A stretch of DNA of 57,770 nt from Cladosporium halotolerans (lineage: Eukaryota), in assembly GCF_011745625.1 (NCBI RefSeq), contig NW_027191476.1:310001-367770 (forward strand), given 5' to 3'. A program made the translations under genes and the position numbers. Below are positions 34,641 through 45,290 of this stretch, in pieces. Positions within the stretch are counted from its first letter, which is position 1, and every line of letters begins with the position of its first letter. Under the pieces are notes generated by a model, which did no database searches, was not told the DNA's origin, and was given only the letters and a program-made list of their open reading frames with translations.

Positions 34641-35479
34641 TTAATGCCTGAGGCGCTGGTCCAGAGGTCAATTGAAGAATTAGGATGTGTTCTCGCGAGA
34701 CCGATTGTTCAGTCAGATGGGCAAGGGGTATATCGAAGTCAGAGGATAAGTGGAAAGGTGTTCGGAGGACGCAGTAGGAGTTCAGATGGGGCGATTCTAC
34801 AGGCCAAATTGTTGCGCAGTGACACCATCGGCCGCGGCGAATCAAAGCGGGGTCCAAGTAATCAAAAAGCAGCCCTGGCCGGCCTTATCAGATCCGGCCC
34901 TTGTCCCGTCGCCTCCTCGGCTGCCCGGCATCCTCGCCATCGCCTACTCTTTCAGGCAACGGCGGTTTCGCGTGGATTCAGACTTGCCTTCCTCGCAACG
35001 GGCGATGTGAACATGAGTTTGTCCAGTACAGATTCTCCTTTTCAGTCGATACAGCGAGCGGTGTTCGCCAACTTGCCCTCACTTCAGCCCTCGTATTTTG
35101 GCTGACGGGCGCAGGAGCGCTGCAGGTCTGCGCCGCTAACTGCATCGTGTCTTCCTTAATTTGCTCATTGCGTGCAGAACCCAGAAAGGATACCACTTGT
35201 TGGCTTCAGATGTGCTATATTGATGGCATCAACAGACATGCCAGTGTCGTGGTAACTTTGGCACTCACTGGCACGGAACGCCGTCTGGCCTCTCCACGAG
35301 CCTAGGTAAGGTTTGCATGAATGCGAGAAAGCGACCGGCCAAAATCCGCCGTATCTCGCCCCACGCGATCCATCTACGTCAACAAGCATCTCAGCAACAC
35401 ACCGTATATAGTTTCCCACCTTGCGCTGCTATTTGAAAAAGATGCTGCGACCTGGGATTAATTCCGTGCAATCAATACA

Positions 35480-36775
35480 ATGTCGAATTCAAAAAGCATC
35501 TTAATCGCTGGAGCAGGCATCGCAGGCCCTGCGCTTGCAATCCTGCTCAACAACAATGGCTTCAAGACAACGATTGTGGAACGGGCACCAGACGTCAGGA
35601 GGGCCGGCCAACAAGTCGACGTCGCCGGCCCTGGTATCGAGCTGGTTCGCTTCCTGGGCGTCGAAGAAGCCATCAAAGCCCGCACCGTCGGAGATGAAGG
35701 CATCAAATTCGTCGACAACGACAATAAGCCATACGCGGCATTTGCCGCATCGAGCAGCACCGTCAGCCTCGTCCGCGAGATCGAGATCATGCGGGGCGAC
35801 ATGGCCGATGTGCTGTACCAAGCCAGCAAGGACCGGACGGAGTACATCTTCGACGACCGCATCACCTCCCTCAGCGAATCCTCCGACGGCATAACATCCA
35901 GCTTCAAAAACAGCCCTGGCAGAACTTTTGACCTCGTCGTCGCCGCCGACGGCCTCAGCAGCCGCACCCGAGAAGTAGCCTTCGGCAGCTCGAAGGACTC
36001 CGTCGTCAAGAACCTCGGCCAATGGGGCGCTCTCTTCACAATCCCCCATGAGCCGCAAGATGGCACCTGGAGCCGCGTCTACATCGCGCCCGGCGGCCGA
36101 GTCGTCTGCCTCCGTCCGGACTTCAAGCGCAGCCAAACGAGCGTCTACCTCGCCCAGGGCTCGTTCGACGTCTCCGTCGCGGGCAAGAGCGTCGACGAGC
36201 AGAAAGCGCTCATCCAGCGGGTCTTCCAGGATGCCGGCTGGGAGACGAAGCGCGTGTTGTCGCATATGCACGACGCGGACAACTTCTACGTCCAGCAAGT
36301 CGCGCAAGTCAAGATGCCCTCTTTGAGCAAAGGCCGCGTCGTCCTGCTCGGCGACGCAGGCTACTGCCCGTCGCCTGTCAGCGGGCTGGGCACGACAATG
36401 GCGTACATCGGCGCGTACGTGTTGGCAGGCTGTCTCATCACTCACAGAGACGATCTGCCGGAGGCTCTGAGGCAGTACGAGAAGGACCTGCGGCCGTTCG
36501 TCGAGTCAGCGCAGAGTCTGGGCCCTGGTGTCCCGGGAATCGCGACGCCGCACTCGGAGTGGGCTGTCTGGTTGACGACGAGCGCGATCGGGGCTGTAGG
36601 GTCCACGGTGAAGTTCATACAGGCGACCGGGATCGGGACGCTGTTGGGCTGGGTGTTCTGGCCTTGTTCTTTGCTTCTGAATCGCGTTGGGTGGTTGGGT
36701 GGCGTTCAGAGTATGAATTTGCCTGTGTACGAAAGCATGAAAGGTCCTGGGGGTAGGAAATGGTCTAATGTATAG
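35480..36775 (+). CDS. FAD-dependent monooxygenase (FAD_binding_3 family)
   Basis: ILIAGAGIAG, DLVVAADGLSSRTR, GRVVLLGDAGYCPSPVSGLGT; hydrophobic C-terminal segment. Confidence 0.92.
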   Translation: MSNSKSILIAGAGIAGPALAILLNNNGFKTTIVERAPDVRRAGQQVDVAGPGIELVRFLGVEEAIKARTVGDEGIKFVDNDNKPYAAFAASSSTVSLVREIEIMRGDMADVLYQASKDRTEYIFDDRITSLSESSDGITSSFKNSPGRTFDLVVAADGLSSRTREVAFGSSKDSVVKNLGQWGALFTIPHEPQDGTWSRVYIAPGGRVVCLRPDFKRSQTSVYLAQGSFDVSVAGKSVDEQKALIQRVFQDAGWETKRVLSHMHDADNFYVQQVAQVKMPSLSKGRVVLLGDAGYCPSPVSGLGTTMAYIGAYVLAGCLITHRDDLPEALRQYEKDLRPFVESAQSLGPGVPGIATPHSEWAVWLTTSAIGAVGSTVKFIQATGIGTLLGWVFWPCSLLLNRVGWLGGVQSMNLPVYESMKGPGGRKWSNV

Positions 36776-37289
36776 CTAAAAATGGTAGAGCTGTGAGATT
36801 TCCCCGGGGGTTAAGGCGAGAGTGTTGGCGCAGGATTGTGGCTTTCGGTTCCGGGAGGATGGCGTACTGTAAACGAAAGGCATGGTCATTCCAGGCCCCA
36901 AGAAAAAGATACTACTTCAGAGATTCTCTAAATTTTCCCCATCCCAACATTTACCAACTTCATGAAGGCATTGGTTGGAAAGGTCTTCACTATAGCTGAG
37001 GTCAATGAATACCAGATAATCAACGCCATTGTTTAGAAGGGAATCGTGCCGCCGGAATGGGAGCAGGTGATCCTCGGGCACAGAATTGCCGACGTCAAAA
37101 TGCGTAAATTCATTCGTTTCTGATAATGATTGTGATAGATCACCAAACAGCACCATGCACATTCAAATCCCTCACATGCAAGATCAACAATGACTTCCTG
37201 TCGCAGCACAGCCAATCCCCAACTTTTAGCCCGACAGTCTATCGAATCCGACTCCCGACAACATGACATGCAGCACGATAGCAAGATGT

Positions 37290-38474
37290 TTAGCAGTTGT
37301 TGTAGACAGCTGGGAAAACAAGTCAGCCCCAGGTCATCAACATTGAGACGGAAATGAAACTTACCACCGGCGAAAAGCGCATAGGAGTCGGCGTTGGCAA
37401 GGGCCTGGGAGGTGGAGAGACGAGTGGCGGCAGAGTATCCGTAGGCGTTGTCCACAGTGCCGGGGCTGTAGACAGCGGGGGCGTGGGTAGACTCGTGAAG
37501 GACGGTAGTGGCCTGGTCCTGAGCATAGCAAGACCTGGAGAGGGCGGGCAGCTGGTTGAAGAAGAGAGGGCAGTAAGCAATGTAGTTGTAGGCAGGAAGA
37601 GTGTAGGCGAGGACGCCAGAAGAGCAGGCGCCGTAGACGTCGGTGCAGTAAGTGCGGGTCACACCGCTGCTGGTCGAGCCGCAGTCGTTGGCGACGGCGC
37701 GAAGACGGGCGGCAACGGTGCTGCGGACGGAAGACGAGGTGCTCTTGAAGAAAGTGTTGAACCTCGTGGCACTACCGGAGGTAGCAGCAGTGGCTGCATT
37801 AGACGCAAGGCTGCGGCAGCTGCTGAGGGCGTTGGTGATCGCAGTGCGGCGAGAGCTGGTGCAGTCGCTCTGCACAACGGTGCGCTTGGAGATGTTGTCG
37901 ACAGCATTCACGACGTTGGCAGCCTTCTCCGAGTCGATGTCGACGGGGATAGACTCGCTGGTGTACATGAGAGCATCTTCGGCCAGCGTAGTCGAGTTGA
38001 GTTCGGCGTAGAGGAAAGCGCCCGACGTAGATACATCGTAGGTGGCGGTCTCAGCAAGCTCGTAGATTTCCGCAAGCTCAACCTCAACCTCGATGGTCTC
38101 ACCGGCCTGGATCGGACGGAAGACATCCTCAGACAGGTCAGTGTAGAGCATGCGCTGGAAAATGCCGGTGAAAGGAGCACGAGAAGCTGAACCATGATCA
38201 GTGGATGTTCGACAGTGCTGCAAAGAATTCGAAAAAGGTGGGACGTACACTTGGTGGTGACGGTCAGCTTGTCAGCAGGGGCATCGTCGAGGAAAGACTC
38301 CTTGATGAGAAGGTTGTAGCCAGTCTCGGCGTTGTTTGTCAAAGCAACCTTGACCTTGCTGTCCTCAACATGCGTCAACTTGACGGAGAGGGGAGTATCC
38401 CTCTTGGTGAGATCGACAGCCGCAGCGCTGACGGTGGTCGCCAGAACGGCAAGGCTGGGGATAGAGTACTTCAT
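37290..38474 (-). CDS. Deuterolysin / neutral protease 2 (peptidase M35) prepro-enzyme; exons 38474-38249, 38186-37365, 37309-37290
   Basis: Signal peptide MKYSIPSLAVLATTVSA; pro-domain ending SKR; HESTH plus GTVDNAYG aspzincin motifs; NADSYALFA|AVYNNC; two canonical introns. Confidence 0.95.
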
Positions 38475-40304
38475 GTTGGAATGATCGAGAGATTCGAGCG
38501 AACCGAATGGAGCGACTGTCTGTAGCGATTGAAAATGATGCTTTGATGGAGTGTGATTTTCTACGGGAGTCTCAAGCCTTACTTATACCCTCTTCGCTTT
38601 CATCCGAGCGATATCAGCACGCTCTCACCTTCTCATCTCGTCAAGCGCCAGTGACAGTTCGTAAGACGTCTGCCATTCATCCTTGGCATGTAACACTGGG
38701 CAGTAAATTGCTCCGCAGACATGCTTGGCTGGAAATGGCAGGTCAAGTCTCCATGCCCAGCAGCGGATAGCGAGACTTTGATACAGGTGCAGTCGAGGCC
38801 AGATGATCAGCGTCCCGAGCGAAACGCAATCCCGTACCATTTAGCGAAACAGGAAAAGGTCCGGCGCGAGCGGGTGATTGAGCGCTAGGGCTATCCGTGG
38901 GGTTATACCAGTCTGCCAACCAATCTTCGACGCATGTGGCTGGATGTACGATGGCCTACAAACTTCTTGCAGGGCTATGGAGTCAGATAGCGGACCTGCA
39001 GTAAAAGGTGGGGCTCCTCACAGATGGCTTGCTGTGGCTGCTGCCCGGACGGGAGGATTGCCCGTATGATTAATTCCCGAGATCAAATCCTGGCTCCAAG
39101 CCTCGGGGCATGTGTATGATCCGTGGCTCCCTGACTGCCGGGGTGGCACGTTGCCGCCCTGTGTGGCCTGACAGCAAGGATGGTGACGGCCATTGGAGGA
39201 CTTACCTGGACACTCGCTTCGCGCGATACGTCCCACTAGCCATGATGGTCCTGTTCCCCAACGCAAGCGTAGGGTAGTTGATGGGTCCAGCTAATCGTTT
39301 CGTTAGATATCGTTAGTTGAACTCTGCCAGGACATCTACAGAAGTGTCGGCTCCTCCGGCTTAGATTTTGGTTGGCAAAAGATCCAATCAAGCGTATGGC
39401 CTAAGCTATATCGACGATCAATAAGAACGTTCTGGATCGCATACTTTTCGAGTAGCCGCGGATTCTGAATCTTCGCGAAGATGTGCCATGAGCTACGTTG
39501 GATCTTTTCGGGTAGGGCGACCGCCCGAGCCTTCTAGTGCTGCGATCGTCAACTTGGCAGCGACAAGCGCATGGTCCTTCGGTCCACGGGCGAAGAAACG
39601 TCTTTGCAGTAGGCAGGGTTGCATCCTCGCAATCACATGCGCAAGTGGTATATGATGGGGCGTGGTAGTGCGCACCAATGGTGTTGTGCAGGCTCTGGGT
39701 AGCGGGAGGGAGGAAGTGAGGTTCGTCTCTCCCGCCTTCCTCTTCCGTGCGCCTCCGCTCTCTAGCGCTGGCTGGGCAGGAGAGCGTTGTTGTTTGAAGA
39801 TGCGTGCCAAGGAAGCCAAGCAATCGCGGGCGATGCTGCCAGCATGCGTGATTACCAACGACACCAATCATCGCCTTTTGCGAGAGGCGGAGCAGCGCTA
39901 CCCGCCCTGCTCTATCACCCCAGAAGATGCCAAACGCCTATGACAGGTCGACAAGCCAGTGTTCGTAGCATGTAAGTTACATGGCTGTGCATGAAACTAT
40001 GAGGCCCTCGCTTGCGGATCCTCCGACGACATGCAATATACCTCAACCTTCATGTTTGCTTCGCCTTGGTGCGCCCTTATCGCAAAATCAACGTGCCACT
40101 TTTACTGGAGATCACTCGGGTACAGGGCATTGGAGATCGGCAGGGTGCAGTCCACTTCTTAGGCATAGAACCTTCTGAGGCCTCGATACTGTTTGACCGA
40201 GGCACGTACTCGCTCTTCACAGCGCCGGTCATATCGCCCCTCAGCCGTTGGAAATATTGTCATCGATACAAACAAACAATTCGAGGCCACCACCGGGTCA
40301 CTTC

Positions 40305-40883
40305 ATGGCAGTTCGAACAGCAATAGTCGCAACAGCTTTCCTAGGCACCATCGCCACCCTCTACCACCTTACGTCTTCGCAAACCTCGATCATGTCGTCA
40401 ACGAGCAGGCCACAACTATCTGCCCAGGACGTGTCAGTTGAGCTATCGTCCACAACAGCTCCTCTGACGGTCCAAGTCACCATCAGGAACTACTCCCCCG
40501 ACCAGACATTCTCTTTTCTGACATGGGACTCGCCCTTCGACCCACAAGCAATCAATACCGGCGTTCTCTCGGTCAAGGACACACAGACGGGTGTCGAACT
40601 CGAAGGCCCTGGCATGAAGCTGAACAGGCAACTACCACCACCTCGCGAAGAACTGATCGAGGTCAAGCCCGGATCATCCGCCACCAGGGAGCTCGGCCTG
40701 GCTTCGCCGTGGGTTCCGACTGACGGCAAGAAGTACCAACTACAGATGCGAGGCAACTGGAGGGGTGCTTGGGCAAAGGCAGCGTCGGAGGTCACCGACG
40801 GGGAGCTGGAGGCTATGGGCAGTGATCAGCTCTCAAGCAATGCATTCGAGAGCGACCTAGTTGAGATGCACATGCAGCAGTAA
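40305..40883 (+). CDS. Stand-alone M35 pro-domain-like protein (192 aa) with N-terminal hydrophobic signal/anchor; no catalytic domain
   Basis: Block-by-block similarity by eye to the neighbouring protease pro-domain; no HExxH; stop follows directly after the domain. Confidence 0.75.
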   Translation: MAVRTAIVATAFLGTIATLYHLTSSQTSIMSSTSRPQLSAQDVSVELSSTTAPLTVQVTIRNYSPDQTFSFLTWDSPFDPQAINTGVLSVKDTQTGVELEGPGMKLNRQLPPPREELIEVKPGSSATRELGLASPWVPTDGKKYQLQMRGNWRGAWAKAASEVTDGELEAMGSDQLSSNAFESDLVEMHMQQ

Positions 40884-42271
40884 ATGTACGCATGGCTTCA
40901 TCCGATAGTTCGCAGCTTCCTTTTTGGGTTTGGTCTTCGAAAGCTAGTAGGCAATTCACGACTCACGTCGTTCTCCGCCGTGATGTGAGACCGAGATCAA
41001 AGAACGTACATGAGTGCTTGACGCAGGCTCTAATCAAGCATGTTGCTTTCGATAGTCGTCTTCGTGACTGAACGTGAAGTGACAAATTGAGATACTGTCA
41101 TTTCGCGATACCACCTTCCATTGGATTTGGGCAGTCACGAGTGCTCATCAATATCAACACCTCCTGTCTTCACCTTGAGGTCCGGCCAAAGCCGTCACAA
41201 TTTTGATTGAAGGGCTGAGAACGATAGGTATTCTTCCCTTTGAACTTCCTATCCCTACATGCAGAACAGAAGCCTTACATAAAAGGCATTGTGTTGGTTG
41301 TGACGATGGACCTTGGAATTGCGCGATGTCGGGTGATAAGGTATCATGGAGCTTCCATGACCAGCGACAGTCTAAGGTACGTCCACGCGAATCCTAGATA
41401 CGAGGAACGAGTGACGCCGAGGTCTTGGGATCTTCCTCCAAGACGCACGGAAGGTGCAACCGCAAAATTAGGGGTTGCCTGTACACGCCGTGCGATTGAT
41501 GCCTCTCAGTTTGTTGCGATGATGCTGTCGATGGCAGACGCATTATTGTAGCCGGGCCACGGAAGACCAAACGAACTCCCAGGGTCTTGTCACTCGTTCG
41601 GTACTTCAGCCTAAGCCATCACAGCAGATCTCGCCGCGATAGCATGCCAACTATCCGAGGGTCGATTTATACATAAGGGGATAGAATGTCAAAGGGTTGT
41701 AACCACTGCTGATTCCCAATCTTTCAGAGACCTCAATACGAGGATAGTCAAGATCAGGCGCCCAGCCACGGGTTCTCACAGAGCGAGTTACTCTGTGCTC
41801 AGCGCGAAAACAGGCCCACTATCCGAAGTAGCGTAGGCCTGCCTAATCAGTAATGTGTATAAGCTGGCACATAAAATTGTAGATGAGGAGAGAAGGATGG
41901 AGGCGCGCGCGAAGTTCCTTTTGTTTTTGCTAGCGGCGGGCGGGCTGGCACGGGCTGTGGATGTACGGGAGAGCGCGGGGGCTGTGGTTGGCTGGCTGCA
42001 GCAGGTGGGAGGAGCTACGTTTACTGTACGAGAGACCACGGAGACCGCAAGAAGCAGCTGGCAGTTGGAATATTGTCGCTGCATTAAGGAGAACCCGCTA
42101 CACACCAAGCCCCCGAAATCTGCCCTCCGCCAGCAATACCATCAACTTTGACGCTGCCACATCGCTTCAGCCGCAGTTGCAGGCGGGATCGATAAGCGGC
42201 CACGAACCAGCCGACCGCCTCAATCACCACCACGACGCGCATCTTCCACTCCCACGAACACAACCTCCGCC

Positions 42272-44666
<2,395 letters not shown>

Positions 44667-45290
44667 ATGTTGACGAGATAAGGCTTGCTGAAAAGATTTG
44701 TTTGGAGCGAGGGGCGCAGGAGGCTGGGACTTAGACGATAGGTTTATTTATTTTAGTACCGGAGAGCATGGTGGGTTGTCTGAAAATGTGGCTTCCATGG
44801 CTACTTTCTGATTTATCAATACAGCGATCCAAGGCCCCTAAGTGAGTCAAAGTGCGTCGTTCGACCGAATGTTTTCATCCTGTTTTGAAGGCGTGTTTGT
44901 ATTCACATTCTAACGCTGATCCTTTATGTTGACGGCTTCAATGTTGATCAAAGTCCAGATCCAGCGATTCAAAGTACCGCGAAGCTGCATATACACCCTG
45001 CCAACCGAGTTACCGTATGAAGAATTGTCATGTGGGAATGAGCATATGTGCTAGCCTGGTACAGTCCGATAAGTCGTGTCCTAACTTCAGCTTCCTCACG
45101 AACGAATTTCAGAACATGGATTCGCTTTGTTGACAAGGTGGTTTCGACATTGAGCCAGCCAGGCAAGAAACAACTCAGAGCAGATACCAAATCGGGCTCC
45201 AGTGTCATCCGTTCAAAGCGAACCAAGGCCCAATCCCTACGCACAGCGATCTCGTATTCTCTAGTACGCAGGACGGCAAGTCCATGAATT

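Follow-up and report, generated by a model that had tools for sequence, protein, structure and literature searches.

Within a 57,770-nucleotide stretch of the Cladosporium halotolerans genome (NCBI RefSeq assembly GCF_011745625.1, contig NW_027191476.1, positions 310,001 to 367,770 of the forward strand; the whole stretch is called the window here, and coordinates count from its first letter), two genes stand head-to-head with 1,830 bp from ATG to ATG: a minus-strand gene for a deuterolysin of peptidase family M35, and a plus-strand open reading frame (ORF), ORF192, whose product is a free-standing homolog of the M35 pro-domain. An earlier interpretation made from the letters alone (the sequence-only reading) had placed both genes and described their anatomy correctly, as gene models and RNA-derived contigs now agree. 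The parts of the pair are as follows.

38474-38249, 38186-37365 and 37309-37290 (including the stop codon), minus strand: coding sequence of the M35 deuterolysin, three exons, 355 amino acids (gene model, Pfam, RNA-derived contigs)
37087-38544, minus strand: extent of the spliced M35 transcript contig (run X7, record 23, 1369 nt: 37087-37309, 37365-38186, 38249-38544)
37882-38417, minus strand: M35 pro-domain coding region, approximately residues 20-177, containing the intron 38187-38248 (alignment of 37 M35 proteins and start of the match to the mature enzyme 1eb6)
37882-37887, minus strand: dibasic K176-R177 (KR) processing site closing the pro-domain (KR followed by TVVQ, read from the sequence)
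37483-37497, minus strand: HESTH zinc-binding motif, H306-H310 (read from the sequence; H306, E307 and H310 lie in the predicted interface)
38475-40304, no strand: divergent intergenic region, 1,830 bp, holding a spliced minus-strand transcript and the ORF192 5' leader
40305-40883, plus strand: ORF192, 192 amino acids, intronless and intact, free-standing M35 pro-domain homolog (unspliced RNA-derived contigs)
40308-40376, plus strand: N-terminal hydrophobic helix of ORF192, residues 2-24, putative signal peptide or type II signal anchor (AlphaFold helix, block predicted local distance difference test score (pLDDT) 88-93)
40392-40394, plus strand: internal ATG, Met30, with A at -3, possible second start codon (sequence and family comparison)
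40431-40871, plus strand: beta-sandwich domain, residues 43-189 (hhalign, AlphaFold strands, VIA-align Z 11.4 to AsaP1 residues 23-153)
40602-40643, plus strand: conserved loop of ORF192, residues 100-113 (EGPGMKLNRQLPPP), placed by prediction in the active-site cleft of M35

The minus-strand gene encodes an intact M35 zymogen with a full pro-domain and a KR site of its own. Its large exon matches both Pfam models of the family well above their cut-offs (PF02102, Peptidase_M35, E 9e-81, 272 bits for a cut-off of 27; PF14521, Aspzincin_M35, E 1.8e-40, 139 bits for a cut-off of 30), and the protein carries HESTH together with GTVDNAYG, the Asp of which is the third zinc ligand; both motifs are invariant in 37 relatives. 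The N terminus is hydrophobic, and we infer the position of the signal-peptide boundary there. RNA-derived evidence was taken from runs X2 and X7, which belong to two studies, X1 and X4 being left out for their DNA-like contigs that span the introns. The intron at 38187-38248 is skipped exactly in contigs of both X2 and X7, and the one at 37310-37364 in X7, each with GT..AG ends on the minus strand, which identifies these contigs as RNA-derived and confirms the gene model; the X7 contig adds a 5' leader of ~70 nt and a 3' untranslated region (UTR) of ~200 nt. According to one study, M35 relatives are zymogens that stay inactive until Kex2 cuts at KR in the secretory pathway (PMC11985622).

ORF192 is represented by unspliced contigs in both runs (39898-40878 in X2, 40231-40889 in X7), with the 5' leader beginning at 39898 and 40231, respectively, and an intronless coding region. 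The sequence-only reading had raised the possibility of splicing to a downstream catalytic exon, and no such joint is present in the X2 or X7 contigs. Both genes of the pair are present in both runs, in which contig depths cannot rank the two. The ORF192 protein begins with a hydrophobic helix that would serve as a signal or an anchor; a short linker rich in Ser and Thr follows, and then a beta-sandwich. As had been noted from the letters, the frame is intact, has no HExxH and ends with the pro-domain; it stops at the end of the sandwich, ~17 residues short of the position equivalent to the M35 KR cleavage site.

The relationship between ORF192 and the M35 pro-domain emerges from a comparison of profiles. 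When an alignment of 89 ORF192 relatives (A1) was compared by hhalign with one of 37 full-length M35 proteins (A2), residues 40-192 of ORF192 were matched to residues 29-171 of the M35 protein, that is, to the pro-domain alone (Prob 97.3, E 1.6e-11, score 81.3, 140 columns), whereas the 22 controls scored 15.6 and 15.7 (reversed alignments) or at most 17.2 (20 column shuffles). The colinear similarity described in the sequence-only reading is therefore real at the profile level, and every block that it listed falls within this alignment. The sole invariant residue of the ORF192 family, N62, and the near-invariant D79 are aligned with N47 and D63, both of which are invariant in M35 pro-domains. 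We regard the homology of ORF192 to the M35 pro-domain as virtually certain; its most likely origin is an inverted duplication that took in the 5' half of an M35 gene.

The predicted fold points in the same direction. The AlphaFold model of ORF192, built with A1, has a mean pLDDT of 91 and consists of the helix at residues 2-24, a less confident linker and the beta-sandwich at 43-189. A Foldseek search of 350,542 PDB chains returned proenzyme chains of the M35 peptidase AsaP1 as its top four matches (E 5.6e-5 to 7.2e-4), the only four at E<=0.001, and no M35 structure among the PDB matches other than AsaP1 includes a propeptide region. In VIA-align, residues 42-192 of the model map onto residues 23-153 of the AsaP1 chain, which lie N-terminal to the catalytic domain and correspond to the propeptide (Z 11.4, root-mean-square deviation (rmsd) 2.9-3.1, 117-118 residues aligned); BsuPI (3isy) follows with Z 8.5, rmsd 3.8 and 112 residues, and all others reach 7.5 or less. 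Whether the fold would turn out to be unrelated to an M35 pro-domain was a question left by the sequence-only reading, and the model finds its best PDB matches in the propeptide of the one M35 proenzyme with a solved structure.

A model of a fungal M35 proenzyme, that of the relative P0196 (pLDDT 87.7), has a catalytic half that matches deuterolysin 1eb6 with Z 31.5; over residues 28-355 it matches AsaP1 with Z ~20 at an rmsd of ~18, a value that suggests a different arrangement of the domains. The P0196 pro-domain shares the secondary structural neighbours of ORF192 (3isy with Z 9.2, 1tza with 7.4, then ApaG-type proteins and transglutaminase domains), the order of strands corresponds between the two models, and a short strand of P0196, residues 85-88, takes the position of the ORF192 loop at 100-110.

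This loop is also where contact with the protease is predicted. Three prediction runs in which ORF192 residues 30-192 were paired with the mature M35 domain gave interaction prediction scores from aligned errors (ipSAE) of 0.87, 0.88 and 0.87, compared with 0.10 for the best of three controls; the same score mark is reached by 51 of 78 solved complexes and by 2 of 108 mismatched pairs. From run to run, 90% or more of the contacts recur, and the pLDDT of the partner is 83 or higher. On the ORF192 side, the predicted interface is formed by residues 100-110 (EGPGMKLNRQL) together with 73, 75, 80, 81, 84, 113, 116, 166 and 169-172, and on the protease side by H306, E307 and H310 of HExxH, D321 and Y324 of GTxDxxYG, and the rim strand 264-275. 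Complex modelling with the mature enzyme had been suggested alongside the sequence-only reading, and here the controls were passed and the conserved loop was placed in the active site. The numbers of the contacting residues sum to a constant, from which it follows that in the model the ORF192 loop runs antiparallel to M35 strand 264-275, the direction in which substrates of zincins bind. It is plausible, because M35 enzymes favour Lys or Arg beside the scissile bond (PMC11985622), that a basic residue held over the zinc on a proline-stiffened loop would act as a plug.

The loop is the best-conserved segment of the ORF192 family (in A1, 86 of 89 members have R108, 87 have P111 and 80 have P112), and position 105 is K in 38 of the 89, Q in 16, M in 15 and R in 5. 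Besides 43 close relatives of 147-196 amino acids, an exhaustive phmmer search yielded 265 representative clusters at E<=1e-3, roughly 150-210 amino acids in size, 142 of them at E<=1e-10. Among the 150 clusters listed, 134 are 150-240 amino acids long, nine are shorter and seven longer, over a range of 88-391. None of the relatives listed, within the length ranges searched, is fused to a catalytic domain, and the M35 Pfam domain is absent at E<=1 from all 13 longer members (233-391 amino acids), whose extra length is a low-complexity tail or an upstream extension. The family has no Pfam model (2025 copy), and ORF192 with its 89 relatives gave no consistent Pfam match of any kind, including M35, BsuPI, PepSY and FTP. 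Members found by profile search are named only 'hypothetical' or 'putative secreted protein', apart from one named after 'secreted protein ARB_00926', which we take to be a dermatophyte secretome protein. They come from Colletotrichum (many species), Stachybotrys, Hapsidospora, Cordyceps, Neofusicoccum and Cladosporium, to which the clusters add Cladosporium allicinum and Aureobasidium.

In 63 of the 89 members, an N-terminal extension of at least 30 residues precedes the domain, typically M-x-x-R and then a stretch of ~17-20 apolar residues, and is probably a signal peptide or signal anchor; for these 63, the best 19-residue Kyte-Doolittle window has a median of 1.85. Within the extension lies a second potential start. 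The first ATG of ORF192 (40305) has T at -3 and the ATG of Met30 has A at -3; a Met 6-20 residues ahead of the first strand is found in 51 of the 63 long members, compared with ~21% expected, and 26 of the 89 members start at the equivalent of Met30, including an NCBI model in Cladosporium allicinum. Two isoforms of ORF192 are thus possible, one anchored or secreted and one cytosolic. The hydrophobic helix, the conserved internal Met and the size of the family (265 clusters) were all absent from the sequence-only reading.

The pairing with M35 genes extends well beyond C. halotolerans. A metagenome scan with an 18-sequence alignment gave 33 loci, in which M35 was sought by tblastn with six M35 proteins. 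In 18 of these, an M35 gene lies upstream on the opposite strand, 1.3-2.3 kb from the ORF192 homolog; in another, L023, which has 1,473 nt of upstream sequence, the initial 41 residues of an M35 protein are read from the opposite strand of the first 125 nt (E 3.8e-9, single-subject search). The upstream flanks of the other 14 (155-1,772 nt) are shorter than the gap in their group or than the smallest gap anywhere (~1.29 kb), which makes these loci uninformative on linkage; none of the 14 has an M35 gene downstream. A head-to-head M35 gene is therefore present in 19 of 19 informative loci, including those of relatives only 28% identical to ORF192.

Identities to the window's pair fall together across these loci (r 0.77 over 16 non-independent pairs), from a lineage with 65-71% for the ORF192 homolog and 70-76% for the partner M35, through two sub-groups with 44-48% and ~57% (a type named in Cladosporium fusiforme and C. 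halotolerans) and an Aureobasidium-like group that includes L026/L027 (39-40% and 69%), to an unplaced group with 28% and 47%. The ORF192 homologs diverge much faster than their partners, as is seen in L026/L027 (39% vs 69%) and in the most distant group (28% vs 47%). In tblastx comparisons, the distant groups (39-48% and 28%; up to 10 kb on each side) share only the pair with the window, and no downstream neighbour is common to the window and any group. Sharing of the pair alone is the pattern to be expected if the pair itself were under selection. The sequence-only reading had looked to linkage beyond chance as a check on its proposal, and we are highly confident that the pairing of the ORF192 family with M35 is conserved.

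Taken together, these results lead us to favour, by a modest preference, the view that ORF192 is a trans-acting, pro-domain-like M35 inhibitor in a conserved divergent pair. The M35 protein's own pro-domain would be cut off at KR in the secretory pathway, and the ORF192 domain would then dock on the mature catalytic domain as the pro-domain does, with its loop, (I/L/M)-(K/Q/M)-x-(N/R/S)-R-x-(L/M)-P-P, running antiparallel to the rim strand so that it covers and blocks the HExxH/Asp zinc site. A non-cleavable copy of the pro-domain, anchored or secreted, could in this way keep the protease latent after the KR cut or shield membrane and wall proteins of the producer. The sequence-only reading had offered an inhibitor or chaperone; homology, fold, linkage and predicted binding now stand behind that idea, and the choice among an inhibitor, a chaperone and a defence against foreign M35 enzymes is one that we infer.

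Several observations weigh against an inhibitor derived from the pro-domain. The identity is low, as the sequence-only reading had said: BLASTP of ORF192 with the M35 protein detects no similarity (best E 67). No Pfam family matches ORF192, and PF02102, which spans the pro-region, matches 0 of the 89 relatives at E<=1, a result that sets ORF192 apart as a separate family, related to M35 only at the superfamily level. An hmmsearch of PDB sequences with the family profile gave matches at chance level only (E 0.85 or worse), and for ESM Atlas features of the whole protein and of the domain the nearest named cluster is BsuPI, a mere lead at 0.85, with M35 unlisted. The linkage sample comes from few metagenome projects, contains near-duplicates (L007/L008, L026/L027, L030/L031), amounts to about five lineages and excludes the Sordariomycete and Eurotiomycete members. 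The complex score may lean on the model's memory of the AsaP1 proenzyme and so reflect likeness to a propeptide and not binding by this copy; ORF192 has no equivalent of the ~17-residue linker and, if the linker is the inhibitory part, might bind without inhibiting; and the conserved internal Met may possibly give a cytosolic isoform that never meets the secreted protease.

Much of the evidence would apply equally to a trans-acting foldase or escort, in which ORF192 would bind transiently in the endoplasmic reticulum or Golgi for folding, disulfide formation or transport, adding to or replacing the chaperone role of the enzyme's own pro-domain without inhibiting the mature enzyme. Homology, linkage and docking do not distinguish the two, the hydrophobic helix could retain ORF192 in secretory membranes, and propeptides of secreted peptidases commonly assist folding, with changes in M35 propeptides reported to alter expression (PMC11985622). 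However, the M35 protein keeps an intact pro-domain of its own, so that a second chaperone seems redundant, and the prediction puts the best-conserved loop on the zinc site, a position easier to reconcile with blocking than with folding; we consider a foldase unlikely. The same intact pro-domain rules out a split gene in which ORF192 would replace a lost pro-domain.

Slightly less probable still is that the pro-domain-derived sandwich has taken on another role, as a surface or secreted protein, a decoy substrate or an inhibitor of M35 enzymes of competitors or hosts, with adjacency to M35 due mainly to a shared bidirectional regulatory region. Its faster divergence than the partner, the name 'secreted protein' given to relatives and the many generic immunoglobulin-like sandwiches among its structural neighbours (Z 6-8.5) would fit such a role, but even relatives of 28% identity retain the linkage amid changing flanking genes, the loop is near-invariant where contact with the catalytic residues of the partner is predicted, and partner pairs vary together. 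That two unrelated, neighbouring immunoglobulin-like sandwiches merely resemble each other through convergence or chance is very improbable. Beta-sandwiches are common, and neither pairwise nor hidden Markov model-to-sequence searches detect similarity; against this stand the profile-profile match with its clean controls, the coincidence of the invariant residues, the four top PDB matches to the only solved M35 propeptide, and a neighbourhood kept in every informative locus.

The closest known counterpart of ORF192 is the attached M35 pro-domain, as in fungal deuterolysin and in AsaP1 (PDB 2x3a/2x3b/2x3c), with which it shares the sandwich fold, the colinear profile, the invariant N and D and, in the model, docking on the catalytic domain at the active site. 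It differs in being a separate gene on the opposite strand, with its own hydrophobic helix and with neither KR linker nor catalytic domain, and in its loop, conserved as ...NR-x-L-PPP in the ORF192 family where the M35 pro-domain consensus is G-I-x-x-R. The AsaP1 propeptide is reported to inhibit by filling the S1' pocket.

Free inhibitors resembling propeptides are known in MEROPS families I9 (yeast PBI2 and Pleurotus POIA1, directed at subtilisins) and I29 (CTLA-2, directed at cathepsins and other papain-like enzymes). Like ORF192, they are stand-alone homologs of the protease's own propeptide and act in trans on the mature enzyme (for ORF192, as predicted), but they have another fold and their targets are serine and cysteine peptidases and not an aspzincin metallopeptidase; we know of no I9 or I29 family that forms a conserved divergent gene pair with its target. 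The PepSY and FTP domains of M4 and M36 propeptides provide a metallopeptidase parallel, being propeptide domains that are also found free-standing and are hypothesised to regulate in trans; Yeats, Rawlings and Bateman reportedly proposed in 2004 that stand-alone PepSY domains of M4 propeptides are peptidase regulators. These domains are mostly bacterial and unrelated to ORF192 in fold and family, and the ORF192 family has no Pfam PepSY or FTP match.

BsuPI (PF12690), the intracellular proteinase inhibitor of Bacillus subtilis, is a small free-standing protein; it ranks second among the structural neighbours of ORF192 (Z 8.5) and likewise of the fungal M35 pro-domain (Z 9.2), and its cluster is the nearest named one to ORF192 by language-model features (the lead at 0.85 mentioned above). 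It is a bacterial protein whose target is a serine protease, PF12690 matches 0 of the 89 ORF192 family members at E<=1, and Z values of 8-9 can reflect a mere common arrangement of strands. Structure, without support from sequence, hints at a wider superfamily of protease-blocking beta-sandwiches that would include BsuPI, the M35 pro-domain and ORF192.

In open-access papers and preprints, covered mostly as titles and the beginnings of abstracts, we found no description of an M35 protein inhibitor or of the ORF192 family, and no paper on ARB_00926 or on six locus tags of relatives. What is new here is a candidate propeptide-like inhibitor for a metallopeptidase family without one, fixed as a divergent pair with its target. 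Joining all the threads, we tentatively picture ORF192 as the founding member of a new family of aspzincin (M35) inhibitors, widespread in Ascomycota, that would include the kin of 'secreted protein ARB_00926'. The family would have sprung from the pro-domain of the enzyme itself and persisted over hundreds of millions of years in a divergent protease/anti-protease pair, and would plug the zinc site with a rigid ...K-x-N-R-x-L-P-P-P loop in a substrate-like direction; its two conserved starts might give membrane-anchored or secreted and cytosolic forms, and BsuPI, the M35 pro-domain and ORF192 might belong to one ancient superfamily. This broad picture is held with less assurance than the inhibitor itself.

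M35 proteases are reported as virulence factors of insect, plant and human fungal pathogens (PMC7051145, PMC11522218, PMC11241649). If ORF192 is an inhibitor, a linked anti-protease would explain how M35 enzymes are latent in fungi after Kex2 processing, and the protein would offer a natural scaffold for specific M35 inhibitors. At least 265 sequence clusters, a family for which Pfam has no model, would thereby gain a function, and ORF192 would present a clear case of a regulator that evolved from a partial inverted duplication of its target gene.

The catalytic domain of the P0196 model (residues 180-355) also matches Candida albicans Pra1 (9n47) with Z 14.5, in keeping with the known relationship between aspzincins and this zincophore. 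PRA1 likewise stands in a conserved divergent gene pair, with ZRT1.

The window is otherwise an ordinary fungal chromosomal region. Its long ORFs have Pfam matches to ALAD, FAD monooxygenase, Sec23/24, Utp25, TRAPPC13, UbiA and aldo-keto reductase, beyond the pair and its two flanking genes it holds housekeeping genes, and the named nearest relatives of the M35 gene and ORF192 come from Cladosporium and other Dothideomycetes. The two genes that flank the pair, and the transcript that lies inside it, are:

35462-36775, plus strand: FAD-binding monooxygenase, one flank of the pair, syntenic only in the closest group of loci
42152-44734, plus strand: Sec23/24-family gene, the other flank of the pair, syntenic in no locus
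38525-39655, minus strand: spliced intergenic transcript (X2 record 11: 39655-39206, 39134-39024, 38974-38525)

Between the genes of the pair, conservation in the closest group of loci covers two blocks, 38474-39003 and 39843-40300. Both ORF192 contigs, from two different studies, end within 6 nt of the stop codon (40878 and 40889) with no loose end, pointing either to a 3' UTR of very small length or to a break in the assembly. A 65-codon upstream ORF (39981-40178, plus strand) lies inside the long X2 leader and is missing from the shorter X7 contig. The intergenic transcript has an intron at 39135-39205 with GTAAGT...CAG ends and terminates within a few bases of the M35 leader. A coding role for it is rejected for now, the spliced form having no long ORF, and the transcript could serve the M35 gene as a distal 5' UTR or be an independent non-coding RNA. 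Taken together with the ORF192 contig that starts at 39898, it would place the starts of the divergent transcripts ~240 bp apart.

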